Source: Nitrosopumilus sp. (lineage in GTDB: Archaea; Thermoproteota; Nitrososphaeria; Nitrososphaerales; Nitrosopumilaceae). From it: a stretch of DNA of 64,000 nucleotides. A program made the position numbers and the translations under genes. The DNA is taken from assembly GCA_965249555.1 (NCBI GenBank), contig OZ252243.1:1632001-1696000 (forward strand). The letters are read 5' to 3'. The notes under the pieces are model-generated. The model saw nothing but the letters and a program-made list of their open reading frames with translations. It searched no databases and had not been told where the DNA came from. Shown here piece after piece: positions 39,617 to 60,581 of the stretch (positions are counted from its first letter, which is position 1; each line of letters opens with the position of its first letter).

Positions 39617-40066
39617 CTATCTTCGTCTACTTGTCTTTCTCTTAGCTTTAGTTCCTTTTCTAGCTGATTTTCTCTTTACACTCTTTCTAGCTGATTTTCT
39701 CTTTACACTCTTTCTAGCTGATTTTCTCTTTACACTCTTTCTAGCTGATTTTCTCTTTACACTCTTTCTAGCTGATTTTCTCTTTACACTCTTTCTAGCT
39801 GATTTTCTCTTTACACTCTTTCTAGCTGATTTTCTCTTTACACTCTTTCTAGCTGATTTTCTCTTTACACTCTTTCTAGCTGATTTTCTCTTTACACTCT
39901 TTCTAGCTGATTTTCTCTTTACACTCTTTCTAGCTGATTTTCTCTTAGTTGATTTTTTTGTAACATTCTTTTTGATAATTTTTAATTCGTTTAGTGCTTC
40001 CTGAATTCCTTTAATCTGTGCGATCATGTTTGCTCTGAATGACTCGTTGCTTATTTCTGCTGACAT
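39617..40066 (-). CDS. Extremely basic repeat protein, histone H1/Hc2-like composition
   Basis: Short helical head followed by (KRKSARKSV)10. Confidence 0.8.
   Translation of the reverse strand: MSAEISNESFRANMIAQIKGIQEALNELKIIKKNVTKKSTKRKSARKSVKRKSARKSVKRKSARKSVKRKSARKSVKRKSARKSVKRKSARKSVKRKSARKSVKRKSARKSVKRKSARKSVKRKSARKSVKRKSARKGTKAKRKTSRRR
39656..39946. repeat. 27-bp perfect coding tandem repeat, ~10.7 copies
   Basis: Unit ttttctctttacactctttctagctga. Confidence 0.95.
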
Positions 40067-43050: not shown

Positions 43051-43776
43051 TCACATGTACATTCCAGAATTCTCTTCTCTATGTTCTACATATTTTTGGG
43101 ATAATTCACTTAATTCTGAACTGATTCTCTCTTTATCTTCTTGAAGCTCTGTAGTGTCTATATCCATTTCATAGAATCGATTTAATGCCTCAATCAGAGT
43201 TGCTGCTGCAGTAGAATCCGGTTCCGTTTTGTTTGCTTTTACTAATAGTGTTACACCTTGTATCTCTCTTACTAGACATTCGTTTAGTATGCCGCCTGGA
43301 ATACCTGTGATAAATCCTTGAGGAATCATACTGATGTCCTTGTCTGCCATTGTTCTTACCAGATCTTCTTCAGCTGCACAGTATGCTTTGTTGTCATGTT
43401 CAATACTTGCAACTCCATCTAGGATAACAATCTCTTTGGATCCTTTTTGTGCTGCCCAATCTAAAATTGATGATACCAGACAGTAAAGTCCTTCCAACTT
43501 CAATGTTATCTCACAAATTATTGCACAGATTGTTCCTTCTTGGTTTGCATAGAATCTAAACGGATGACGTAATCTGCCTCTCATGAAAACTGTTGATGGA
43601 GGGAGATACTTTGATCTCATTACTCCGATCTCCTCCATTTCTAATTTCTCAATAATGTGATTAATTGCAACAGGACCTACGAGACCTGCTCCGACAAAGC
43701 CTGCAAAGATTATTGGATTCTTCAATTCTGTTTTCTTTGTCTCAAAGACTTCAGCTTCAGGAAATTCTTTCTGCAC
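43051..43776 (-). CDS. PAC2-family proteasome assembly chaperone
   Basis: GFVGAGLVG...HPFRFY; C-terminal MYM. Confidence 0.88.
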   Translation of the reverse strand: MQKEFPEAEVFETKKTELKNPIIFAGFVGAGLVGPVAINHIIEKLEMEEIGVMRSKYLPPSTVFMRGRLRHPFRFYANQEGTICAIICEITLKLEGLYCLVSSILDWAAQKGSKEIVILDGVASIEHDNKAYCAAEEDLVRTMADKDISMIPQGFITGIPGGILNECLVREIQGVTLLVKANKTEPDSTAAATLIEALNRFYEMDIDTTELQEDKERISSELSELSQKYVEHREENSGMYM

Positions 43777-48466: not shown

Positions 48467-50175
48467 CTTTGAACATTCCAAGAAAAACATACGTTGATTT
48501 GTTTGGTCCGACTGTGGGTGACCGAATCCGTCTTGCAGATACTGATTTGATTATTGAAATTGAAAAAGACTTGATCAAATATGGTGATGAGGCTGTATTT
48601 GGTGGAGGAAAGAGCATACGAGATGGGCAGGGGCAAGCAAGTGGAGTGTCTAGAGCAGAGTCACTTGATCTTGTAATTACTAACGCAATTGTAATGGATC
48701 CAATTTTAGGAATTATCAAAGCAGACATTGGAATAAAAGATGGAAAAATTGTCGGGATAGGAAATGCTGGTAATCCTGATATCATGGATGATATTGATAT
48801 GGTAATTTCTTCAAACACTGAGATAATTGCAGGTGAGCATACAATTTGTACTCCTGGAACAATTGATTCACATGTTCATTTTATTTCTCCTCAACAAGCA
48901 ATACATGCAATTTGTAATGGTACCACTACAATGATTGGTGGCGGAACTGGCCCTGCTGATGGAACAAATGCAACAACATGCACTCCTGGTAAATGGAATA
49001 TTCATAAAATGATTGAATCCGTTGATGAATTACCACTGAACTTTGGATTTCTTGCTAAAGGAAATGATTCCCGTGAAACTGCATTACTTGAACAAATTGA
49101 AGCAGGAGCTTGTGGGCTAAAACTACATGAAGACTGGGGTTCAACTCCTGCTACGATTGATTCTGCTTTGAGGGTTGCAGACAAAACTGATACTCAAGTT
49201 GCAATCCATACAGATACTCTCAATGAATGTGGATTTGTTGATGACACAATTGAAGCAATTGCTGGAAGAACAATTCACACTTATCATACTGAAGGAGCAG
49301 GTGGTGGACATGCTCCAGATATTATGAAAATTGCAGGTGAAGAAAATATACTTCCTTCGTCTACAAATCCTACAAGACCATTTACAGTAAATACATTAGC
49401 AGAACATCTTGACATGATGATGGTTTGCCATCATCTAAATTCATCAGTTCCTGAAGATGTGTCCTTTGCAATGTCTAGAATTCGTGGTGAGACTATTGCT
49501 GCAGAGGACGTATTACATGATATTGGAGTTTTGAGTATGATGTCTTCTGATAGTCAAGCTATGGGACGAGTTGGAGAAGTTACAACCAGAAATTGGCAGA
49601 CTGCTGATAAAATGAAAAAGATGGCTGGCACATTACCTGAAGACAATGCTCAAAATGATAATTTCAGAGTAAAAAGATATCTTGCTAAAATTACAATAAA
49701 TCCTGCCATAACTCATGGGGTTTCAGATTATGTGGGATCATTGCAGCCTGGGCGATTAGCTGATATTGTAATTTGGTCCCCTGCATTTTTTGGAGTCAAA
49801 CCAAAAATGATCATTAAAGGCGGTTTTATTGCATATTCCCTTATGGGTGATCCAAATGCATCAATTCCTACTACTGAACCTGTCATGTATCGCCCTATGT
49901 TTGGAGCCCTTGGCCAAACAAAATATTCCACTTCTGTAACATTCACATCTCAACTGGCACTAGACAAGGGTATTGAATCTGAAATCAATTCAAAAAAGAA
50001 ATTGGTTCCTGTGAAAAATTGTCGTTCTATTGGAAAGAAAGACATGTTGTATAATGATCTTACTCCAAACATTGAGGTAAATCCTGAAACATATGAAGTA
50101 AAAGTTGATGGGAAAATTGCAACTACAGATCCAGCAGACAAAGTTTCTATGTCGAGACTATACAATTTATTTTAA
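48463..50175 (+). CDS. ureC: Urease alpha subunit
   Basis: [44 protein letters not shown]. Confidence 0.99.
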
Positions 50176-50194: not shown

Positions 50195-50953
50195 TTAGTT
50201 TATTGAAAATAATTTATTATCTAATCCAATTGTAATTACAATATTGAGACCAATTATGAAAGTTATACTAGCTATTGTGTATCTTAGATATTTAGTAACA
50301 TAATTAATTTTTGATAATAAAATAAATGGTAATCCCATAATGCCACTAGCAACAGTCATACCAATTATACTGCCTATGCCAAATAAAATTAGAAAATAAA
50401 TCATCATATCAAAACCATTCATTGTAGATGCAAATAATGCAACAAGACTACCACTACCTGCAATACCGTGAACACAACCAATTAGATATGCTTTGTGACC
50501 ATGTTTGTGATTTTCATTGTGTTCATGAGAATGTGTGTGAGAAATTCCGTTTGAATGTGTGTGAGGATGAACATGTTTTTGTTTAAAGATACTTTTGTTT
50601 GTAAATGTAAAAATTGCTAAAGTAATCAACATTAAACCAACAAGCACTTCTGCACTAATAAAAAAATCATTAGGTATGTTTAATGATAAACCTGCAATCA
50701 ATAACCCAATTAGAATAATGCTGGATGTATGTCCCATTCCCCAAAGTGCTCCTCTTAAAGAAGAGATAATGGTAAGATTTTGCAAGTCTCGTTTTTTTGT
50801 ACTCTTTGAATTATCGTTATTTCTTAATAGTTGAGTGGAAACTGCACTAAGATGATCAGGCTCAAAAGCATGTAATACTCCAATCATCAGACCTGCAATT
50901 ATAATTAAAAAAGGATTGTTGGCTTGTAACATTCCCATTATTGTGTCAATCAA
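50195..50953 (-). CDS. Nickel permease (UreH/NiCoT-like)
   Basis: HAFEPDH, WGMGH, His-rich loop HVHPHTH...HTHSHEH...HKHGH, HGIAGSG. Confidence 0.88.
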   Translation of the reverse strand: MIDTIMGMLQANNPFLIIIAGLMIGVLHAFEPDHLSAVSTQLLRNNDNSKSTKKRDLQNLTIISSLRGALWGMGHTSSIILIGLLIAGLSLNIPNDFFISAEVLVGLMLITLAIFTFTNKSIFKQKHVHPHTHSNGISHTHSHEHNENHKHGHKAYLIGCVHGIAGSGSLVALFASTMNGFDMMIYFLILFGIGSIIGMTVASGIMGLPFILLSKINYVTKYLRYTIASITFIIGLNIVITIGLDNKLFSIN

Positions 50954-51365
50954 TTATTCCACTACTCCTATATGCTGTTTGTTTCTGTCCATCAAGAGAA
51001 TATTGAACAATTTGAATGGGTGTTGTAATGAACATTTGTTCTTTATCCATATCTTTGGTTGTAATTGTAAAAGTTAGTTTTCTCAAGCTTTCAGGAACTC
51101 CAATCATTACTTGATGTGGTAAGAGCATATCTGGTATTTGTTTTTGTATTTCGTTGATTGTTTTACGTTCATTTAAAGAAGTTATGATATAAGCTACAAA
51201 CAACCCAAGCGTCTCGTTTATGTTTAATCGCATATTGTTTGATAGGTGATTTTTGATTAATTGTGTAGATTCGAAGAAAATTGTTTCATCAGATTTTTCA
51301 TAATAAAATATCTTGGTAAATGGCTTGATATCAGAATCTCCCTGTACCAATACTTCAATTTTCAT
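50946..51365 (-). CDS. Divergent urease gamma-subunit-like protein
   Basis: RLNINE...KTINEIQ...LLPHQVMIGVPE...TPI aligns by eye to UreA KLNHPE...RNVPELM...[12 protein letters not shown]...DPI. Confidence 0.7.
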   Translation of the reverse strand: MKIEVLVQGDSDIKPFTKIFYYEKSDETIFFESTQLIKNHLSNNMRLNINETLGLFVAYIITSLNERKTINEIQKQIPDMLLPHQVMIGVPESLRKLTFTITTKDMDKEQMFITTPIQIVQYSLDGQKQTAYRSSGIID

Positions 51366-52480
51366 TAATCTCTCTTTGGAATTTTAGATGTTGGATTACC
51401 AAAACTGTATGTGTTTCCAGTACCCATGTATGCCTTTGGTCTTACAGGATCTCCTCCCTCCAAACCTCTCTTTGTTAATGATAATCCTGCCAATAGTTCA
51501 ATAACTAATCTTTGTCCTAATCCAGATGTGATTCCTCCATTGTAAGAACTTGAATCACTGACATCATATGCTGGAGCAATTTCTACCAAATCCATTGCAA
51601 ATCTATCAGGATCAAATGATTTTGATAATAGACGAATCATTCTAATTCCTTCTCTTGATGTAAGTCCATTTGGTTCTGGTTCTCCCGTACCTGGTGCATA
51701 AGCAGGATCAAACGAATCAATATCCCAGCTAAGATAGACAGCATCTGTTCCATCATTTGCTCTGTCAGCTATTTCTTTTGCAATAACATCAATTCCTAAT
51801 TCTTCAACATCAAGCATTGTAAACCATTGGAAATCTTGGTCTGACATCCATTTGTACAAATCACGTCCTGGCCAATATCCTCTTGGGCCAACAAGCGAGT
51901 AGTTCTTTCCTTTAAGACAACCCATCTCCATTATTCTTCTAATGTGAGCTCCATGATCATACTTGAAACCAGTTAGTCCTTGTGGTGCACAATCAGCGTG
52001 CGTATCAAAATGAATCATGCCTATGTTTTTGTATTTTTTCTGAAATGCTCTAACGTTTGCATAAGTAATTGAGTGATCCCCTCCAAGCATTACAGGAATA
52101 CCATCTGCCTCTAACACTTCCTTAACTTTTAGAGTCATTCTCTTGTGTGATTCTATAACATCTCCTGGTGAAACTATAACGTCACCATAATCTACTGTTC
52201 GAAAAGTTCCAAATGGATCTGCACCCGTTTCAATATTGAATCGTTCAAAAGGAGGTGATGGAATTGTAGATGCAGCTCTAATTGCTCTTGGTCCATATCT
52301 TGCTCCGGGACGAATAGTGGTACCAAAGTCAAATGGTTCCCCAATAATTGCAACATCTGGTTTTACTTCAACTAATTCTTTGTGTGTCTTTACCCAGGGA
52401 AGATGTAAAAATGTATTAATTCCTACAAATGGTGCAACATCTGCACCTTGAAAATCATCACCATAAAATTCCATGCCCAT
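51365..52480 (-). CDS. Ureohydrolase (agmatinase/guanidinobutyrase superfamily), substrate unknown
   Basis: RPGARYGPRAIR, GGDHS, DTHAD, DIDSFDP..APGTG.PEP.G, DLVE; all six metal ligands present. Confidence 0.92.
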   Translation of the reverse strand: MGMEFYGDDFQGADVAPFVGINTFLHLPWVKTHKELVEVKPDVAIIGEPFDFGTTIRPGARYGPRAIRAASTIPSPPFERFNIETGADPFGTFRTVDYGDVIVSPGDVIESHKRMTLKVKEVLEADGIPVMLGGDHSITYANVRAFQKKYKNIGMIHFDTHADCAPQGLTGFKYDHGAHIRRIMEMGCLKGKNYSLVGPRGYWPGRDLYKWMSDQDFQWFTMLDVEELGIDVIAKEIADRANDGTDAVYLSWDIDSFDPAYAPGTGEPEPNGLTSREGIRMIRLLSKSFDPDRFAMDLVEIAPAYDVSDSSSYNGGITSGLGQRLVIELLAGLSLTKRGLEGGDPVRPKAYMGTGNTYSFGNPTSKIPKRD

Positions 52481-52519
52481 TTTAAATCAAATTCTATTCA
52501 AGACTTTGATAATTAAAGA

Positions 52520-52536
52520 TTTCAAGTAAAGTACGT
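52520..52536 (-). promoter_or_regulatory. Operator/BRE element upstream of the ureohydrolase operon
   Basis: ACGTACTTTACTTGAAA ends 39 nt before the ATG and is followed by TATA-like CTTTAATT. Confidence 0.75.
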
Positions 52537-52590
52537 ATCCTGTATTTTAATTATTAATAATCCTCATATTGCAAAAAAATTAAATTATGT

Positions 52591-52599
52591 GTAATGTAC
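52591..52599. promoter_or_regulatory. Second GTACnwTAC site (ureohydrolase/TPR divergent region)
   Basis: GTAATGTAC = GTACATTAC on the minus strand. Confidence 0.55.
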
Positions 52600-52638
52600 G
52601 ATTTAAATATAAAAATAGTATCCCTGTGAAATATCAAT

Positions 52639-53877
52639 ATGATATTACAAAATTCAAAAAATGCATGGTATTTTTTGAATCAAGGTTTGGAAGCGGTTTA
52701 TTACAGTCAATTTAAAAAAGCTGTTTTAAAATTTAACAAGGCTATTTCTCTAGAACCTGAAAATACTGTGGCACAACTTCATAAAGGTAGAACATTATAT
52801 AAAATGGAAAATTTTCAAAATGCTGTAATTTGTTTTGACAATATCTTGTCTATAGATCCAAAAAGTTTAGATGCTTTATACAACAAAGGTCTTGCACTTG
52901 AAAAGGTAGAAAAATATGAAGAAGCGATATCTTCTTTCAAAAAATCTCTTGAAATTGATTCACAATATTCTGATTCATTAACATCCATGGGGTTGTGTTT
53001 TAGTAAATTAGACCGTAATGAAGAAGCTCTAAAAATAATTGATCAAGTTTTGTTGAAAAATGCAAAAAACTCTGCTGCTCTTTACGCTAAAAGTTTGATT
53101 CTGGGAAGATTAGAAAAAAGTTCAGAGTCAATACTATTCTTACAGCAAGCTATTGATGAAGATTCTAGACAATCTGATATTCTATATGAGAAAGGGCAAG
53201 AACTTACAAAGCAAGGAAAGCATACTGTAGCAATAAAATTCTACACCAAGGCTTTAGAGATAGATAGTAAAAACACTAAGGCATTAGTGGCCAAGGGCTG
53301 GACGCTTGATTTTGCAGGATTTTCCAACAAAGATATTTTTGTATTTTATGATGAGGCTCTAAAAATTGATCCAAGATGCACTGAGGCTCAATTCAATAAA
53401 GGAATAGTTTTGGATAGAACCCGTCTGTACAAAAAGGCTATAGAATGTTTTGATAAAATTTTAGAATATGACACTGATAATGTTCGGGCACTTTACAGTA
53501 AAGGTACATCTTTATCTCAATTGAAAAAGTTTGGCCAAGCAAGATTCTATTTTGAATGTGCATTAGAGCTTGAACCAGAAAATGTTGTTGCTTTGGGTAG
53601 TATGGTATGGTTTCTAGAACATTCAAAAAAATATGATGAGGCGCTTGAATACTGTGAAAAAGCATTAAAAATCAATCCAAATTACGTATATGCAATAAGC
53701 TATAAGGGAAAATTACTTTTATTATTAAAAAAATATGAAGAATCTCTAAAATGTTACAACAAAGCAATAGAACTTGATCCAAATAATCAAACTGCGCTTT
53801 TTCACCGATTTAAAGTACAAGATAAATTAAACAAAATGAAACAAGAGTCATTTTTAAAAAGACTTACAAAATTATGA
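52639..53877 (+). CDS. Tetratricopeptide repeat protein
   Basis: About 11 34-aa repeats (A.YNKG..L...EEA...F.K.LEID). Confidence 0.92.
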   Translation: MILQNSKNAWYFLNQGLEAVYYSQFKKAVLKFNKAISLEPENTVAQLHKGRTLYKMENFQNAVICFDNILSIDPKSLDALYNKGLALEKVEKYEEAISSFKKSLEIDSQYSDSLTSMGLCFSKLDRNEEALKIIDQVLLKNAKNSAALYAKSLILGRLEKSSESILFLQQAIDEDSRQSDILYEKGQELTKQGKHTVAIKFYTKALEIDSKNTKALVAKGWTLDFAGFSNKDIFVFYDEALKIDPRCTEAQFNKGIVLDRTRLYKKAIECFDKILEYDTDNVRALYSKGTSLSQLKKFGQARFYFECALELEPENVVALGSMVWFLEHSKKYDEALEYCEKALKINPNYVYAISYKGKLLLLLKKYEESLKCYNKAIELDPNNQTALFHRFKVQDKLNKMKQESFLKRLTKL

Positions 53878-53944
53878 TACTTTTAAGAAAAAATAAAAAT
53901 TAAATTTCGAATATTTTTATATTTGTTCTTTGTACTGATTAGTA

Positions 53945-54196
53945 ATGCAGAATGTTAGCACACAAGAAGATGTCAATAGAGAATCAAAAAGAATAATCAA
54001 TGCATTATATGGGGATGTAAGCGACTTTAGGGTCAATGAAACATTTCAAATTCCTGAAAAAGGACCTAGAGAAGCTTGGGATGTTCAAGTTAATTTTATG
54101 CTGAATGCTTTGAAATATACTGTGGACCTTGAAATCCAAGAGAAAGAAGGTCATGTAACTAGTGCACGATTAATTGATACAATGACCCCCCTCTAA
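53945..54196 (+). CDS. Small hypothetical protein
   Basis: 83-aa ATG ORF downstream of the TPR gene. Confidence 0.7.
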   Translation: MQNVSTQEDVNRESKRIINALYGDVSDFRVNETFQIPEKGPREAWDVQVNFMLNALKYTVDLEIQEKEGHVTSARLIDTMTPL

Positions 54197-54238
54197 TTTT
54201 TTCAATATTTTATAAATTCAAATTATTATAAATGAACT

Positions 54239-54748
54239 TTACAGTGTTAAGATTTCTTTTGCAGCTTTAATCTTTACAAGTAATTCGTTAATGTAGCTAT
54301 CTGCAAATCTTTCAAAACTAGTAATTCCTTGGTTCTTTTTCTGTTTTTTGTACTCTTCTTGAAGCCAATTAAAATCTGATTCCTTTAGACTAATGGAATT
54401 ATTTTGAGCATCGTTTTTTGATTCAAGCATGTTAACGATAAAATAACTTACAAATTTTGTAAAGCATTTTACGCCATATTTTTTTTCATATTCATCCCCA
54501 AATTTTTTATGATTTTTTACTAACCAATCTTTTACATCCGATCTAATTGTTATCGTGTTATATCTACCCGACAAATCTAATTTTATTTTATGAGATTCTA
54601 CTGAATAATGCCCTCTCTTAATTTCATTCATTATGATGATTAAGGTACTAGGTAGAAACATTCCGGGATAGCTTTTGTCGGTTGCTTCTTGCAATCTAGT
54701 TGTAATAACTGGTTTCATGCCAAATGTCGAATATCCTTTGCCTGGCAT
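54239..54748 (-). CDS. Putative tandem ribbon-helix-helix DNA-binding protein
   Basis: Three strand-helix(-helix) units: YSTFGMKP...RL, YNTITIRSDVKDWL...FTKFVSYFI, NSISLKESDFNWL...FERFADSYI. Confidence 0.6.
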   Translation of the reverse strand: MPGKGYSTFGMKPVITTRLQEATDKSYPGMFLPSTLIIIMNEIKRGHYSVESHKIKLDLSGRYNTITIRSDVKDWLVKNHKKFGDEYEKKYGVKCFTKFVSYFIVNMLESKNDAQNNSISLKESDFNWLQEEYKKQKKNQGITSFERFADSYINELLVKIKAAKEILTL

Positions 54749-54796
54749 ATGAAATGGATCTAACTGGTGTTTATATTATTTTATGAATTTGGAAAG

Positions 54797-54967
54797 TTAA
54801 GTTTGCTTTTTTTTCAATTCTTTAATTAATCGAATTAATACCCAAAATGTTCCCATTACTACAATCCCTATGCCGAGACCACTAGAAAAAGCATTATCTG
54901 AACCAGATTGATTTAAACCCAGTCCTAAGATAATTAGAATAACTGCAAAAGCATATTGTTTATCCAC
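54797..54967 (-). CDS. 56-aa two-TM micro-protein (not in track)
   Basis: GTG start; MDKQYAFAVILIILGLGLNQSGSDNAFSSGLGIGIVVMGTFWVLIRLIKELKKKQT. Confidence 0.6.
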   Translation of the reverse strand: MDKQYAFAVILIILGLGLNQSGSDNAFSSGLGIGIVVMGTFWVLIRLIKELKKKQT

Positions 54968-55162
54968 GTTCTGCCTAAGAGGATTAATTTAATAACATTT
55001 TGAATTTTAAATTTGAGCAAAATTTTAGTAATGAAAATTTAATTATATCTTTTTGTAATCTAACAATAAGAGATTCATAATTTCATTATTTTACAAAATC
55101 ATTTAATTTATCCATTAAATTTCTGTTAAAACTACAAAATATGATGAATTATTTTGTTAAAT

Positions 55163-55210
55163 GTACTATACGAATCATTTATTCCTCAAAAAAACGTACT
55201 ATACTTGAAA
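55163..55210 (+). promoter_or_regulatory. Two GTACTATAC operator sites upstream of the SSS transporter
   Basis: Sites at 55163-55171 and 55196-55204; ACGTACTATACTTGAAA ends 39 nt before the ATG. Confidence 0.75.
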
Positions 55211-55249
55211 AATTCAATACTGATATAGTTTGATAAGTTCAATGAGATT

Positions 55250-56854
55250 ATGGTGGAGATGGATGGGTTTGGTATTGCCGTTGCCGCTTTTATTGTCATT
55301 ACACTTCTTGTTGGTGTATTCGCCGGTAAGCTAGTAAAAAATAGTGGTAAGCGACTGATCGTTGCAGGAAAAAGTCTACCTTTGTTTATGGTTGGAACTA
55401 TGCTTGCAGCACAAGCAGTTGATGGAAATTCATCGTTAGGAAATGTTGCACTTGTTTTTGAATTTGGATTTTGGGCAGGAGCAGTTATTCCGATTGGTTT
55501 AGGATTGTGTCTGTTTGTAACAGCTGCATTCTATGCTAAACCCCTAAACAAAATGTCAATGATTACATTACCTGATTTCTATTTCAGAAGATTTGGAAAT
55601 GGAGCAGAAGGTCTTTCCGGAATTCTTATGATAATTAGTTTTCTAATTCTTGTTGCAGGCAATTTAGCTGCTAGTGGATTTATTTTGGAAGTTGTGTTTG
55701 GTATAAATTATTTCTACGGTATTGCAATTTCAGCTATAGTTGTGGTAATCTATACTGTTGCTGGCGGATTATTTGCATCAGCCTATACAAATCTGTTCCA
55801 AGTTTATCTTGCAATTGGTGCATTTTGGGCTGGATTCCTTTTCTTTTATGGGGGATTTGCAGATACTCCTTGGGATGTCATTTACAACAACGCACCACCA
55901 GAGTTCATGGACCTGTCTGGATTGTACGACATGGCGAATGGAGCGCTGATTAATTGGGGTGCTATTCTTGCACTAGGACTGGGAGATATAGTTGCGCTTG
56001 ACTTTATGGAGCGAGTGTTTTCAGCTAAGAACCCCAAAACAGCACAAAGAGGTGCTTTAATGGGCGGTGCACTAACTATGTTTACAGTAATTCCAACTAG
56101 CATGTTGGGAATTGTAGCATTTTTCTATCTCCCAGCAGATACAATACCAGATTTAGCATTACCTTTACTATCCACAGAAATCTTACCATTTGCAATTGGT
56201 GCAGCAATACTGATGGGAGTAGTTGGGGCATCAATGTCTACTGCAAGTGGAGGACTATTGGCAATATCTAGTGTAATTTCCAGAAACATGATGCAGAGAA
56301 TTATCAGAAGACGATGGCAACAAAAACCAAATTGGAGCGATAGTCAATTACTCAAAGTTACTCGTCTTGTAATTATCCCAATGATGGTAATTGGAACTGC
56401 AATTGGTTATTTCGTACCAGCTCCTGGAATTTATCTCATCTTAGCATTTGACATAGTTTTTGCCGGAGCATTTGCTCCTCTTACATTAGGTTTGTTCTGG
56501 AAAAAGTCAAACATGCCAGCAGCCGTTGTAGCTCTTGTTGTTGGTTCACTAATACGATTCATCTTCTTCTTTACAATGCCAGAAGAATGGGCAGGATTAG
56601 ATACAATGATACCCCCAATCATTGCATTTGCTCTGTTCTTTGTAGTTGCACAAGCAACCCAAGGAAAGTATCCAGGAAAAGCAAGACACGATGTACGAGA
56701 CTATGTGCCACCTGAAGAAGATGTAATTGCAGGAGAAGATTTGTTACACTTCAAAAATGATACTTCGGCTACAAGTGCAGGTGGACCAAGCTCTGATACA
56801 CCAGGACCTGACACACCTGAACCCGATGATGCTACAAGTAAGGAAGTAACGTAG
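55250..56854 (+). CDS. Sodium:solute symporter (SSS) family transporter, not DUR3-type
   Basis: About 13 TMs; VAGKSLP, TLPDFYFRRFG, YTVAGGL, RVFSAK, ASMSTAS; lacks the DUR3 WTWAAT motif. Confidence 0.92.
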   Translation: MVEMDGFGIAVAAFIVITLLVGVFAGKLVKNSGKRLIVAGKSLPLFMVGTMLAAQAVDGNSSLGNVALVFEFGFWAGAVIPIGLGLCLFVTAAFYAKPLNKMSMITLPDFYFRRFGNGAEGLSGILMIISFLILVAGNLAASGFILEVVFGINYFYGIAISAIVVVIYTVAGGLFASAYTNLFQVYLAIGAFWAGFLFFYGGFADTPWDVIYNNAPPEFMDLSGLYDMANGALINWGAILALGLGDIVALDFMERVFSAKNPKTAQRGALMGGALTMFTVIPTSMLGIVAFFYLPADTIPDLALPLLSTEILPFAIGAAILMGVVGASMSTASGGLLAISSVISRNMMQRIIRRRWQQKPNWSDSQLLKVTRLVIIPMMVIGTAIGYFVPAPGIYLILAFDIVFAGAFAPLTLGLFWKKSNMPAAVVALVVGSLIRFIFFFTMPEEWAGLDTMIPPIIAFALFFVVAQATQGKYPGKARHDVRDYVPPEEDVIAGEDLLHFKNDTSATSAGGPSSDTPGPDTPEPDDATSKEVT

Positions 56855-56998
56855 CAAAATCAAATAATGCAGAAGTCTCTGCTCATTTGATTTTATGTTC
56901 TTTATTTTTGATAAATTAAATTCATCAGTAAGCATATTTTAATATCTCTAAAAGTGGTTATAGTGCAGGTTTAACCAATTAATCCAAGTTTAATGGTA

Positions 56999-57118
56999 CC
57001 TCACGTGAGTTTGGATGGCGGCACTCCTGCCGAAGCCTGCGGCATTCAAGTCGAAGGAAAAAATCAATGGTTACCCCTTATTCAGAACGCAAAACTAGTT
57101 GATTTAACACGTGTTTAA
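56999..57118 (+). pseudogene. C-terminal remnant of a DDE integrase/transposase
   Basis: PHVSLDGGTPAEACGIQVEGKNQWLPLIQNA matches the PH.SL.G.TPAE end of the integrase core. Confidence 0.7.
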
Positions 57119-57167
57119 AGCAAAACTACAAGCATTTAAGAATCTGAAATATATTAATATATTATAA

Positions 57168-57284
57168 TTGGAAGAAGAAGAGGAAGAAGAAATGACTGAT
57201 GAAAGTAGAGAAATAATAAAAGCACTTGTAAAGAAAACTTTGACTCGACACAGAATTATATTTGAACGATTAGACGAACTTTGA
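57168..57284 (+). CDS. 38-aa acidic candidate antitoxin for the Doc toxin (not in track)
   Basis: MEEEEEEEMTDESREIIKALVKKTLTRHRIIFERLDEL; TGATG overlap with the toxin start. Confidence 0.55.
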   Translation: MEEEEEEEMTDESREIIKALVKKTLTRHRIIFERLDEL

Positions 57285-57544
57285 TGATTGATTTTAATAC
57301 AGATGTTATTAAGGCAATTCATACTGAATTAGAAAAATCTTTTCCAAGAATGGAAAAGGGAATTATTCCTGAGAAAGAACCATTACTTCAATCTATTATT
57401 GAAAAACCAGATAGAATACTTTTTGGTGTTGAAAGCCCATATCAAGATTTGATAAGTAAAGCAGCTGTTATGATGGAGGCAATAACTCGATGGCATGTTT
57501 TTGTCGATGGAAACAAAAGAACATCATTTTTGACACACATCTAG
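57284..57544 (+). pseudogene. Fic/Doc toxin, apparently C-terminally truncated
   Basis: KAAVMMEAITRWHVFVDGNKRT Doc motif with a stop only 6 residues later. Confidence 0.8.
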
Positions 57545-57630
57545 GCTGGGATGATATTAATGGAGCAGTTTTGTGCCTAAAAATTGCTAATTTTTATAAT
57601 TATTATAATGAATATAATTTTTATAATGGG

Positions 57631-57657
57631 ATTGTAACGTTATTGTAACGTTACAAT
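57631..57657. promoter_or_regulatory. Perfect 16-bp palindrome plus a partial direct repeat
   Basis: ATTGTAACGTT followed by ATTGTAACGTTACAAT, overlapping an ATG at 57656. Confidence 0.5.
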
Positions 57658-57975
57658 GATACCAAAAGAAAAACTACAATGGACTGAAAAAGATAGCAAG
57701 GATGCTAAGACATTTGTAGACGGTGTCAAAGATGGTTCTATCAAAACTACAAATTTCCTCAATTTAAAAAGGGCATAATCTTTACACATTACAACTATGC
57801 CGTGGGTTGCTGTATCTCCAATATCATTCATTAGTACTGTAAGAGATCTTCCTATTGATGAACCTACATAACGTGCGATTAGATTGTTGTTTTCGCTCTC
57901 TGCAATTACATAAACTCCTCTCGTTTCAACCCATTTTGGGGACAAATTGTCCGTTTCCGATTGGATTATAATCAA
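57640..57975 (-). pseudogene. Possible GIY-YIG nuclease fragment
   Basis: GVY-x13-YVGSS; the remainder looks like read-through into unrelated sequence. Confidence 0.3.
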
Positions 57976-58162
57976 ATGGGCCGTTCCAAGTTAGTTTTTG
58001 CATATATTGATAATTTCTTTACAAATAATAAATATTGAAAAGCTTAACAAAAGCTTCTGAAAAGCCAATCTCTGTTATTTCCATGCGTAAAAACATGATA
58101 TATTCATAAGAAAAGATTGGAAATTCTTTACTAGTCATATTCACTTGTGTCTATAACCATTG

Positions 58163-58295
58163 TTTAATGTACTAAACATTGATTGTAGAATTACTTTAAT
58201 GGACTAAACTTTGATTTTACGTTGTTTTAATGGATTAAACCTTGATTGTAGAACTGCTTTAACCCATTAAACCTTGATTCTAGAATTGTTTTAAT
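58163..58295. repeat. Non-coding 31-32-bp imperfect tandem repeat x4 ending in the chaperonin promoter
   Basis: Units start at 58163, 58195, 58226 and 58258; consensus tttaatggaYtaaaccttgattgtagaattgY. Confidence 0.88.
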
Positions 58296-58314
58296 ATCTA
58301 AAAGGAGGCTAAAA

Positions 58315-60009
58315 GTGATGAAATATCCAGGTTTGCTTGATCAAGATATTTCACGTATTGGATTACGAGAATCACAAATGTATAATTTAATCTCAGGCAA
58401 ACTTGTTACAGAAATAGTTAAAACATCTCTTGGTCCGCGCGGTATGGAAAAAATATACATTGACATACTTGGAGAAGATTCAATTACAAGTCACGGTGGC
58501 GCATTTTTGAGAAAAGTTGATGTTGATCATCCTGCAGCTAAGTCAGTTATTGAAGCTATAAACACAGTTGATACTCATGTTGGAGATGGTACTACATCTA
58601 CAGCTATTTTGATTGGTAGTTTACTCAAACATGCTGAAGAATTATTAAAAATTGGAATTCCTGTTGCTACAATTACTCGTGGTTATAATCAAAGTCTAGA
58701 CTGTGCTTTAGAAACATTGGATGAAATCAAGATAAAATCAAACCGAAGAGATAGAAAAATAATGCGACAATTACTAACTACCTGTTTAGAGGGAAAAGCA
58801 ATTTTTGATTTACAAGAAGAAAATACAATGATTGTAGATATTATCATTGAGGCTGTATGTGATATTGCCAACTTGGAAAGAGGACAGATAGATATCGATG
58901 ACATAAAAATTGAAGAAAAGATAGGAAATGCTACAGAAATACAATTGATCAAAGGTACAGTGATTGATAAAACGATAGATAGTTCAGCAATGCCTAGAAC
59001 TATCCACGATGCCAAGATTTTGTTAATTAATGAATCATTAGAACCCATGAGAACAAGAACCGAAGCAGAGATAGAAATAAACTCGCCCAAACAAATGAGT
59101 CAATTCCTTGACCAAGAAAACACAGACTTGCTTACACTTGTAAAAAATATTGTAGATTCAGGAGCTAATGTCGTAATATCTAGGAAAGGAGTTAATGAGT
59201 TTGTTCAAGAAGCTCTCGCAAAACATGGTATTATTTCAATGAGACGAGTAAAGTACAATGATTTATGGTGGCTAGAAAAGGCAACTGGTGCTAAGATCTG
59301 TAAAAATATTGAGAAAATATCTAATGGTGAATTAGGTTTTGCAAAAAGAGTGTATGAGAAGACTGTAGGTGGAGATAAAATGGTTTTTGTGGAAGGTGGA
59401 AACAATCCAAAATCTGTAACTTTGTTATTGAGAGCAAACTCTAAACGATTTCTAGATGAATTTCACAGAAATGCTTTGAATGCATTTTATGTATTAAGAA
59501 ATTTCATTGAACATCCGTTTATTGTATATGGTGCTGGCTCTGTTGAAGGAATAGTATCTCAAAAAATTAGAAAGCAAGCTATAACTGTTGAAGGTAAGGA
59601 ACAAATTGCAATACAAAAATTTGCAGATGCTGTAGACGAAATACCATTAACATTAGCACAGAATGTGGGAATGGATGTATTAGATACATTAACACAATTT
59701 CGAGCAAAATTTTCAACATTGAATGGTAAGATAAAATGGTATGGAATAAATTCTAACACTAGAAAGATATCTGATGTATCGTCATCTGACATTATAGAAA
59801 CAGTAGTTGTTAAACAACAAGTTTTCAAAACTGCAGTTGAAGTTGCCAACATGATACTGAATGTTGATGATGTGTTCATGAAGAATTTGATTGACAATAC
59901 CCATTGTCATATTGATGGAGTAGTTCACGCTCATCATGATGGTGGAAAGTCTCACAATCACTTTGAGCAAGAAGGATTAGAACAAAGACAAATGCATCAT
60001 TACTACTGA
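58315..60009 (+). CDS. Divergent group II chaperonin (thermosome-like) with a His-rich C-terminal tail
   Basis: SLGPRG, HPAAK, VGDGTTST, LEKATGA, ILNVDD; tail HCHIDGVVHAHHDGGKSHNH...HHYY. Confidence 0.92.
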   Translation: MMKYPGLLDQDISRIGLRESQMYNLISGKLVTEIVKTSLGPRGMEKIYIDILGEDSITSHGGAFLRKVDVDHPAAKSVIEAINTVDTHVGDGTTSTAILIGSLLKHAEELLKIGIPVATITRGYNQSLDCALETLDEIKIKSNRRDRKIMRQLLTTCLEGKAIFDLQEENTMIVDIIIEAVCDIANLERGQIDIDDIKIEEKIGNATEIQLIKGTVIDKTIDSSAMPRTIHDAKILLINESLEPMRTRTEAEIEINSPKQMSQFLDQENTDLLTLVKNIVDSGANVVISRKGVNEFVQEALAKHGIISMRRVKYNDLWWLEKATGAKICKNIEKISNGELGFAKRVYEKTVGGDKMVFVEGGNNPKSVTLLLRANSKRFLDEFHRNALNAFYVLRNFIEHPFIVYGAGSVEGIVSQKIRKQAITVEGKEQIAIQKFADAVDEIPLTLAQNVGMDVLDTLTQFRAKFSTLNGKIKWYGINSNTRKISDVSSSDIIETVVVKQQVFKTAVEVANMILNVDDVFMKNLIDNTHCHIDGVVHAHHDGGKSHNHFEQEGLEQRQMHHYY

Positions 60010-60061
60010 GTCATTAACAATAAAAAAATATAATTTCGAAAATTATCTTTATGTTCTTTTA

Positions 60062-60406
60062 CTACTCTTTGTTGATAAAGAGATTCAACATAGTTCGTCC
60101 CTTGTCTGTGATTGTATAGATTACATTTGGTCCTACTGGTTCTTTTTCTATAAAGTTGTAATTCACACACAGATGTAGATAATTCAAAAATGATTTCTTC
60201 ATTCTGATCTTTGACTTTGAATACAAATTTGAGAATGTCATGGGATTTCCTCTAAGTTGATACAACAGCTTCAACAGTGATAGAGTACTGTAATCTCGTG
60301 TTCTTGCTTTTACTGCATCAAGTATTTGCACGTCTCTTTCTATGATGAAATCTTCGAATTGGTCGGCTACTTCTAGTGGCACATATGTTAGTCTTGTTCG
60401 CATCAT
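60062..60406 (-). CDS. Winged helix-turn-helix transcriptional regulator
   Basis: MTFSNLYSKS...FLNYL...NFIEK...YTITDKGR..L wing signature. Confidence 0.85.
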   Translation of the reverse strand: MMRTRLTYVPLEVADQFEDFIIERDVQILDAVKARTRDYSTLSLLKLLYQLRGNPMTFSNLYSKSKIRMKKSFLNYLHLCVNYNFIEKEPVGPNVIYTITDKGRTMLNLFINKE

Positions 60407-60409
60407 ACT

Positions 60410-60428
60410 GTATGGTACGGTACATTAC
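60410..60428. promoter_or_regulatory. Two adjacent GTACnwTAC sites between the TATA box and start codon of the wHTH gene
   Basis: GTATGGTAC (60410-60418) and GTACATTAC (60420-60428); minus-strand TATA-like CTAATAAA immediately upstream. Confidence 0.7.
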
Positions 60429-60581
60429 TTTATTAGTCTTTAACTTTAGCTTTGTTGATCTACCTAGCTGGTTTTTTTACACCTAGATCTCGATAGATGA
60501 ATCCAGGTTTATTGCAATTGTTAGAATTGTGAAATTATAATGAATAATCTCCTTTAAACAACGAAAATCTGAACGTTCTTT

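Follow-up and report, generated by a model that had tools for sequence, protein, structure and literature searches.

Archaeal activators such as Ptr2 and TFB-RF1, which are helix-turn-helix (HTH) or winged helix-turn-helix (wHTH) proteins, bind a site that abuts the B recognition element (BRE) together with a second, helically phased site. The small ribbon-helix-helix (RHH) repressor aCcr1 of Sulfolobales recognizes a 9-bp palindromic box with GTA and TAC that sits between TATA box and start codon (PMC9976878), and the tandem RHH protein AvtR, which has several binding sites, acts as an activator and also as a repressor (PMC5569661). Here, we compared with such systems a 64,000-nucleotide stretch (the window) of contig OZ252243.1 from Nitrosopumilus sp., an ammonia-oxidising archaeon whose 2.23-Mb genome is a single contig (labelled G000). 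The window carries urease genes, an arginase-family hydrolase, a tetratricopeptide repeat (TPR) protein, small open reading frames (ORFs), a sodium:solute symporter (the transporter), an extra chaperonin and a 114-aa wHTH protein. Six GTAC-N-W-TAC sites in this region split into two classes, A and B, which almost certainly represent two control circuits. Sequence comparison makes it probable that these circuits belong to two paralogous RHH factors, here termed RHH3 and RHH128, whose two regulons would be addressed through related words.

All six sites listed in a preliminary description of the window were present, four of them in the hydrolase and transporter promoters and two, at 60410 and 60420, at the wHTH gene. 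The 17-mers at 52520-52536 and 55194-55210 were identical at 16 of 17 positions and each stopped 39 nt short of its ATG; the spacings of 65 and 33 bp within the two site pairs were likewise confirmed. Six sites in 1,669 bp of intergenic DNA compared with 0.19 expected from the intergenic rate of the genome, an enrichment whose P value (~6e-8) is too favourable because the pattern was picked after the sites had been seen. GTA-N3-TAC alone was mildly enriched in intergenic DNA (102 versus 74.5); therefore, flanks and position carry the signal. Three further GTAC-N-W-TAC matches in the window lay within coding sequence (36474, 37338 and 59248); the class B matrix ranked them 419-702 and the class A matrix lower than 4,000. 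An additional overlapping GTA-N3-TAC occurred at 60415. The motif GTAC-N-W-TAC holds in this window, but only 38 of 81 distinct orthologous class B sites fit it on either strand, and the conserved core is GTA-N3-TAC. The common orientation of the six sites is present in the pattern itself, but relative to the wHTH gene the sites at 60410 and 60420 face opposite ways.

The six sites had been taken as one kind. Four of them are class B; those at 60410 and 60420 belong to a different element, class A, in which they mark where one TAC-S-GTA unit joins the next. Under the class B matrix the four hydrolase and transporter sites ranked 1, 2, 3 and 12 genome-wide (own-class ranks are partly circular), compared with 5,205 for 60410 and 1,640 for 60420; under the class A matrix all four ranked below 5,000. 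A matrix built from 38 hydrolase sites of other genera only placed the four class B sites at ranks 2, 1, 70 and 3, the last being 55194-55210, and the class A sites at 56,101 and 3,249. The flanks of class B differed from those of class A at no fewer than 5 of 8 positions in 72 of 81 sites, and no perfect TAC-S-GTA unit was identified in 41 hydrolase and 10 transporter promoters.

The class B word in this genome is AAAC-GTA-N3-TAC, ending 9-10 bp before the TATA box. At the hydrolase promoter, the proximal site (52520..52536, minus strand; core GTACTTTAC at 52526-52534) lies directly upstream of the BRE, followed by the TATA-like box TTAATTAT (52509-52516, minus strand). The distal site (52591..52599, minus strand), 65 bp from the proximal site, shares sequence with the BRE position of the TPR gene, which runs divergently and has a TATA-like sequence at 52603-52610. 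At the transporter promoter, the distal site (55163..55171, plus strand) lies 33 bp from the proximal site (55194..55210, plus strand; core GTACTATAC at 55196-55204), and a weak TATA-like box, TCAATACT, follows at 55214-55221 on the plus strand.

Conservation of these sites was analyzed in a first sample of 81 genomes, in each of which orthologues of the hydrolase, the transporter, wHTH and RHH3 were sought, and in a family sample of 131 Nitrosopumilaceae genomes. In the first sample, the hydrolase promoter had a site in 11 of the 13 genomes with a close orthologue, and the transporter, which occurs in the same 13 genomes, had one in 10; all 30 wHTH orthologues examined carried the tandem form described below as class A. 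The gap between core and TATA box was 9-10 bp in 32 of the 40 hydrolase promoters with a site, and the conserved right flank extended into the BRE. Helical phasing, which the preliminary description had noted from two pairs, was also seen in orthologues: hydrolase site pairs were spaced by 61-69 or 72-75 bp in 47 of 48 cases and transporter site pairs by 31-33 bp in 45 of 49, with the remaining four at 82 bp, corresponding to whole helical turns. A common regulator of hydrolase and transporter acting from an activator position upstream of the BRE, as originally suggested, fits these data. A strong class B site (rank 4) was also identified at G000:C1:1562707-1562729 (L077), upstream of a 203-aa gene that is followed by a gene for what we take to be an aIF5A-like protein. 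It was present in G000, G007 and G092, which are RHH3-positive, and absent from G009 (positive) and from G012 and G047 (negative); this gene is a possible remote member of regulon B. Transporter promoters of the Nitrososphaera type (L439, L444, L450, L029 and L285) had no class B site and carried another palindrome, TTCGAC-W-GTCGAA.

Class B did not extend to general nitrogen metabolism. No site scored at ureA or ureE, as the preliminary description had noted. The genome-wide scan it had proposed for a wider nitrogen regulon gave no support: neither matrix placed amoA, amoB, amoC, one amt-like gene, glnA, ureA, ureE or either of two PII-like genes at or above the 99th percentile of promoters. 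These genes were found by short motifs; the amoA start is approximate and dur3 was not located.

RHH3 (54239..54748, minus strand) is an unannotated 169-aa protein with three RHH repeats, and very probably binds the class B sites, as judged from its distribution. It was found in 11 of the 81 genomes, exactly those 11 with a site at the hydrolase promoter; G051 and G068 have hydrolase and transporter and lack both RHH3 and the site. The hydrolase was present in 54 genomes of the family sample and RHH3 in 44, all of them among the 54. Hydrolase promoters were examined in 40 of these 54 genomes, comprising all 10 that are RHH3-negative and 30 of the 44 positives. The proximal site was present in 28 of 30 RHH3-positive and 2 of 10 RHH3-negative promoters, and pooling both samples gave 39 of 41 genomes with RHH3 versus 2 of 12 without. 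Transporter promoter sites were found in 8 of 9 RHH3-positive and none of 5 RHH3-negative clusters. Among the best 80 of 172 RHH3 loci, which include Nitrososphaera records, a site was present at all 64 evaluable hydrolase promoters and at 60 of 63 transporter upstream regions, a few only at distance; wHTH lay within 7 kb in 1 of the 80. No class B site was found at the promoter of RHH3 itself in this genome. On a 41-row hydrolase tree, RHH3 absence required 5 changes, at least 3 of them forced by supported branches, and a gap in the assembly probably accounts for one of the 5; hence we count approximately four independent losses of RHH3, not twelve.

Analysis of the RHH3 AlphaFold2 model (mean confidence score pLDDT 84.8) revealed a repeated beta-alpha-alpha topology, with elements E6-11, H13-26 and H32-44, then E64-69, H70-91 and H96-116, and finally H127-140 and H145-168; the third strand was not called in the monomer model, yet residues 116-169 align to RHH chains. 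The top structural match was TraY (9f0x_E; Z 6.1, root-mean-square deviation (rmsd) 4.2, 101 aligned), followed by AvtR (4hv0; Z 5.8, rmsd 3.2, 77 aligned) and single-chain Arc, with Z-scores ranging from 4.9 to 6.1. Repeats 1 and 2 (residues 4-116) match single-chain proteins with two RHH repeats. No Pfam RHH family matched RHH3, and a C-terminal nickel-binding domain of the NikR type is absent, the three repeats taking up all 169 residues. Since RHH3 lacks a ligand domain, any signal would have to act through a partner or through the level of RHH3.

Several observations weigh against this assignment. Six of the ten RHH3-negative family genomes belong to one genus, and the Fisher test of the link between site and RHH3 (p 2e-7) is overstated for that reason. 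G125, which is 97% complete in 100 contigs, keeps the proximal hydrolase site without RHH3, its transporter sites being gone; G138 also keeps the hydrolase site with no RHH3 seen, on a contig that ends before the RHH3 position. Conversely, G140 and G197 have RHH3 and no hydrolase site, G140 having three at the transporter, and G163, G076 and three Nitrososphaera loci have RHH3 and no transporter site. The Z-scores of the fold are middling, and no Foldseek match reached E 0.001. Two other cluster members were considered as class B binders and rejected: the TPR protein (52639..53877, plus strand), a candidate partner, is still encoded in clusters from which RHH3 and the sites have gone, and a conserved 83-aa protein (53945..54196, plus strand), preceded by class B sites in certain other genomes and by none here, stays in clusters that lost the sites.

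The preliminary description had assigned all six sites to the 114-aa wHTH protein, which would repress its own gene and activate the hydrolase and the transporter. We regard this as highly improbable. GTA-N3-TAC, often as CGTA, is common to all six sites, the wHTH gene lies near the cluster in G000 and G007, and the site positions fit activation at one end and repression at the other. However, class B sites persist in eight genomes without detectable wHTH (G018, G046, G076, G111, G127, G145 and G159, and G140 at the transporter) and are missing from both promoters of G088 and G186, where wHTH and the cluster are present. In addition, the two classes do not cross-score in the matrix rankings above, and adjacency of wHTH and cluster is not conserved. 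A PAC2-like gene adjoins wHTH in 27 of 32 wHTH loci and the chaperonin of the cluster in 2, from which we conclude that the cluster was inserted beside wHTH here; it now lies between wHTH and PAC2 (43051-43776). wHTH was found in 113 of 131 family genomes, compared with 54 for the hydrolase. Its absence was not scored for G024 (contig end) or G028 (69% complete). No wHTH was detected by profile search and gap inspection in G046 or in G018, which is one contig, 99% complete and holds other DNA in the syntenic gap, and an orthologue overlooked through divergence was rejected on the same grounds. The protein itself (60062..60406, minus strand) is ArnR1-like, with ESM Atlas scores of 0.97-0.99 to ArnR1-like wHTH clusters and a weak Pfam HTH_45 match (E 0.006-0.04), and contains a winged-helix domain. 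It is a target of regulon A and perhaps a co-binder there, and not the class B factor.

Binding of RHH3 at class B is likely to activate, judging from the layout of the promoters: the core ends at a fixed distance of 9-10 bp before the TATA box, upstream of the BRE. Basal elements were also stronger at the 13 hydrolase promoters without a site (median combined BRE and TATA score 6.2, 90th percentile) than at the 40 with one (3.9, 53rd percentile; BRE p 0.001), as if loss of an activator had been compensated; this comparison is overstated, as related genomes are not independent and G076 was misfiled as site-less by the distance window. In a rather improbable alternative, RHH3 would bind class B and repress, sitting over the BRE and keeping TFB out until displaced by a signal. 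Conservation of the right flank into the BRE would agree with such an arrangement, as would the intact-looking hydrolase in clusters that lost RHH3, which is expected after loss of a repressor, and repression is the activity of characterised archaeal RHH factors like aCcr1 (PMC9976878). Set against these points are the fixed position upstream of the BRE, the stronger basal elements at site-less promoters and the capacity of the tandem RHH protein AvtR to activate (PMC5569661). We therefore favour activation by RHH3 in what follows.

The class A operator array at the wHTH gene (60406..60428, minus strand) consists of TAC-S-GTA units at a 10-bp period, with a central 17-mer at 60406-60422; its GTA-N3-TAC is the junction between neighbouring units. 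The array sits between a TATA-like box (60429-60436) and the wHTH start, the repressor position that the preliminary description had recognized. A coding or RNA explanation was rejected; the array lies upstream of an in-frame stop, and no riboswitch was identified in the window by Rfam. When the wHTH-promoter matrix was run on the genome, the best match elsewhere was the radA promoter, which carries a near-identical 24-mer between TATA and ATG; the radA operator lies at G000:C1:552972-552988. A perfect TAC-S-GTA unit was present in 40 of 40 radA promoters of the genus, 30 of 30 wHTH promoters (30 examined of 41 orthologues found in the 81-genome sample) and 33 of 37 RHH128 promoters, compared with 14 of 2,626 in the genome-wide background. 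It was also present in 14 of 16 wHTH promoters from other genera. In the complete genome G012, a strict class A pattern gave four matches: wHTH, radA, RHH128 and a 62-aa Cys/His ORF. Genome-wide, class A comprised five strong sites and two weaker ones, and uvrA scored -7.3. The 62-aa ORF and a small C2H2-like ORF, both outside the training set, ranked 2 and 4 in G000 under the class A matrix. Arrays at small ORFs were located at G000:C1:1470850-1471020 (35-aa C2H2-like), 1965638-1965877 (62-aa Cys/His) and 2044032-2044250 (47-aa), the first two ORFs being conserved in relatives. A further class A-like array at G000:C1:104036-104053 (L078) had no called gene, tRNA or Rfam match beside it.

RHH128 (G000:C1:1290875-1291261) is a 128-aa protein with an RHH domain and a C-terminal zinc-finger-like Cys/His domain. 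Its model (pLDDT 86) matched RHH structures including 3no7 (Z 6.8, rmsd 1.4, 51 aligned), TacA, TraM, NikR and PutA, and the rank-10 set in ESM Atlas has PF01402 in 14% of its members. In the C-terminal part, which forms a small beta domain, Cys95, Cys103 and His105 are conserved. The family comprised 425 representatives at E up to 1e-10, and 9 of the 10 genomes in which RHH128 was sought had it. When the profile of its RHH domain was searched against the 2,626 proteins of the genome, only RHH128 itself and RHH3 (E 7e-14) matched; on RHH3, repeats 2 and 3 matched at 1e-8 to 1e-9 and repeat 1 weakly at 0.03, and hhalign gave E 2.6e-5. RHH128 and RHH3 are paralogues, which would explain the core common to classes A and B. 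Similar units were found at the RHH128 promoter in several other families. In G075, RHH128 directly precedes a radA paralogue, and in G111 it is divergent from radA; the radA paralogue of G080 has TAC-N-GTA units. G018 (L198, G018:C1:607200-608300) has a partial duplication of RHH128 that includes the operator, and from the usual start neither copy gives a full frame. Homologues of RHH128 number three in G190 and four in G154 (L336-L339, L343-L346), and most of their operators are degenerate.

RHH128 is a reasonably good candidate for the class A binder, a pairing suggested by promoter content and synteny. Among family genomes, wHTH-negative ones kept the central radA unit in 17 of 19 promoter copies and wHTH-positive ones in 20 of 21, and RHH128 is therefore the likelier class A repressor than wHTH. 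A number of findings do not fit this assignment. The second radA unit was near perfect (0-1 mismatch) in 19 of 21 wHTH-positive versus 2 of 19 wHTH-negative copies. In one test set, 4 of the 9 main promoter copies of RHH128 had no perfect unit, and RHH128 looks disrupted in G018, where the radA unit persists. The radA site has gone from five g39 genomes whose wHTH and RHH128 promoters, where examined, keep theirs, and outside the family all 10 main radA promoters inspected lacked the unit.

Decay of the second radA unit with wHTH loss points to a role for wHTH at class A. We consider such a role possible but on balance doubtful; RHH128 and wHTH may both bind. In this alternative, wHTH, alone or with RHH128, would repress class A, its dimer reading a palindrome of 17 bp, TACCGTA-N3-TACGGTA, both at radA and at the wHTH gene. 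A winged-helix dimer fits half-sites spaced by 10 bp. The array is present in the wHTH promoters of the genus and mostly in those of other genera (counts above), decay of the two-unit form on wHTH loss was also seen within genera g1, g27, g32 and g37, and both the radA array and wHTH were confined to the family in the samples searched. However, the wHTH-negative copies that keep the central radA unit include complete genomes, units occur at RHH128 promoters of families in which wHTH was not found, and G136 has a perfect pair without wHTH; general relaxation may also explain the decay, since many wHTH-negative genomes belong to divergent lineages. Self-repression by wHTH, part of the original proposal, is accordingly only a tentative reading, and RHH128 is retained as the preferred class A factor.

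A single factor for both classes was also considered from the side of RHH128, which would bind class A and, weakly, class B, with RHH3 merely a co-factor or bystander. The CGTA/TAC core common to both classes and the presence of RHH128 in most genomes with class B sites would agree with it. Class B sites, however, vanish with RHH3 loss where RHH128 homologues stay (G190, G154, G051 and G068), and the divergent flanks of the two classes also argue against it, making it very improbable.

In the model of two paralogous RHH factors, RHH3 would bind AAW-Y-GTA-N3-TAC-N-YRR directly upstream of the BRE at the ureohydrolase operon and the Na+:solute symporter, with a second site 3 or 6-7 helical turns further up. 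The fused repeats 1 and 2 may read the asymmetric AAWYGTA, and repeat 3 may join two chains over GTA-N3-TAC and its flanks. RHH3 would most likely activate by helping TFB and TBP load on a middling promoter, turning on import and hydrolysis of a guanidino compound, and the urea released would feed urease. An RHH128 dimer would read the symmetric TAC-S-GTA in units of 10-bp period lying between TATA box and start in leaderless genes, and would repress itself, radA, the 114-aa wHTH and a few small Cys/His ORFs. A bolder reading, which we offer as speculation that is rather unlikely to hold in full, is an SOS-like damage switch without LexA in Nitrosopumilaceae: RHH128 would repress radA, itself, wHTH and small zinc-finger genes until its Cys/His domain senses damage or oxidation, and a triplicated version of its DNA-binding domain would have been recruited as activator of an organic-nitrogen cluster. 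If true, one recognition word would serve both DNA repair and nitrogen scavenging.

The class B target hydrolase (51365..52480, minus strand) is a 371-aa arginase-family ureohydrolase (Pfam PF00491) with canonical GGDH, DxHxD and DxD motifs. It scored under the curated cut-offs for agmatinase, the SpeB equivalog (TIGR01230, 156.6 < 174.3; PRK02190, 205.5 < 302), and its nearest solved relatives are the guanidinobutyrase 3nio and the guanidine hydrolases 7esr and 9fek (E 5e-50 to 2e-47). The Trp of the G-W-PEP motif matters in the active site of guanidine hydrolase (GdmH/guanidinase); in the alignment, the hydrolase has E where 7esr has W. Overlapping the hydrolase stop is a gene for a 139-aa urease-gamma-like protein (50946..51365, minus strand; PF00547, E 3e-6), which is probably co-transcribed with the hydrolase and is a possible accessory subunit; this stand-alone gene accompanies the hydrolase in 52 of the best 80 RHH3 loci. 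The probable third gene of the operon (50195..50953, minus strand; no Pfam match; 53 of 80 loci) encodes a His-rich membrane protein that is a probable nickel transporter, judged by resemblance. The second class B target, the transporter, is a 534-aa sodium:solute symporter (55250..56854, plus strand; PF00474). Assembled contigs from four RNA runs overlap parts of the hydrolase, transporter and wHTH genes; such contigs give neither starts nor levels. Genes for deoxyhypusine synthase or pyruvoyl arginine decarboxylase adjoin the cluster in several genomes (L066:2388-3338, L072:967-2016 and L069:5703-6254), a weak hint at agmatine or polyamine chemistry. The extra group II chaperonin (58315-60009) has a His-rich tail, was present in 52 of 80 RHH3 loci and has no class B site upstream here. 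An 87-aa Fic/Doc-like ORF (57281-57544) between transporter and chaperonin is absent from the G007 cluster and looks like a remnant. Elsewhere in the window, a 149-aa protein (39617-40066) with many KRKSARKSV repeats has a histone-H1-like composition, and an Rfam 5_ureB_sRNA match antisense within ureC (48623-48906), barely over threshold, is probably coding-sequence similarity.

Ammonia-oxidising archaea are abundant, and regulon B names a candidate regulator, operator and targets for a urea-generating cluster present in 54 of 131 sampled family genomes, giving a lead on when these archaea use organic nitrogen and in the form of which compound. For direct control of radA, regulon A supplies a specific candidate; the Sulfolobus work on Sta1 and TFB3 considered here had not settled this point. 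In Sulfolobus solfataricus, the MarR-like Sta1 activates the radA paralogue sso0777 and binds neither the radA promoter nor its own (PMC2175319), and radA induction is TFB3-independent (PMC6101594). RadA is not mentioned in the main text of an H2O2 proteome study (PMC6593220), and the accessible parts of PMC11410670, PMC12686405, PMC12625717, PMC6790972 and PMC6593220 mention neither the regulation of this cluster nor a radA regulator. Our search, which left subscription papers and supplements outside, found no published description of either motif or protein and no mapped regulator-operator pair for either circuit.

Compared with described systems, the comammox guanidinase is under a guanidine-I riboswitch (PMC11410670), which has no counterpart in this window by Rfam. 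Like Sta1, the class A factor would be an archaeal sequence-specific regulator tied to a RadA-family gene, although Sta1 does not bind the promoter of radA itself. Class A resembles the LexA/SOS system in its predicted autoregulated repressor with operators over the promoter of a RecA-family gene; it differs in that neither the 114-aa nor the 128-aa protein has a Pfam match to the S24 peptidase domain, and in its narrow regulon of approximately five to seven genes, without a site at uvrA. Class A has the geometry of aCcr1, with a different half-site spacing and with radA in place of the aCcr1 target cdvA; we know of no zinc-finger domain in aCcr1. Class B shares its site layout with Ptr2 and TFB-RF1, whereas RHH3 has neither an HTH nor a ligand domain. 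AvtR of the virus AFV6 (4hv0) and TraY of the F plasmid (9f0x) carry two RHH repeats in one chain, as do repeats 1 and 2 of RHH3. RHH3 differs from both in having a third repeat, in being chromosomal and in travelling with a catabolic cluster, and its motif differs from that of AvtR.

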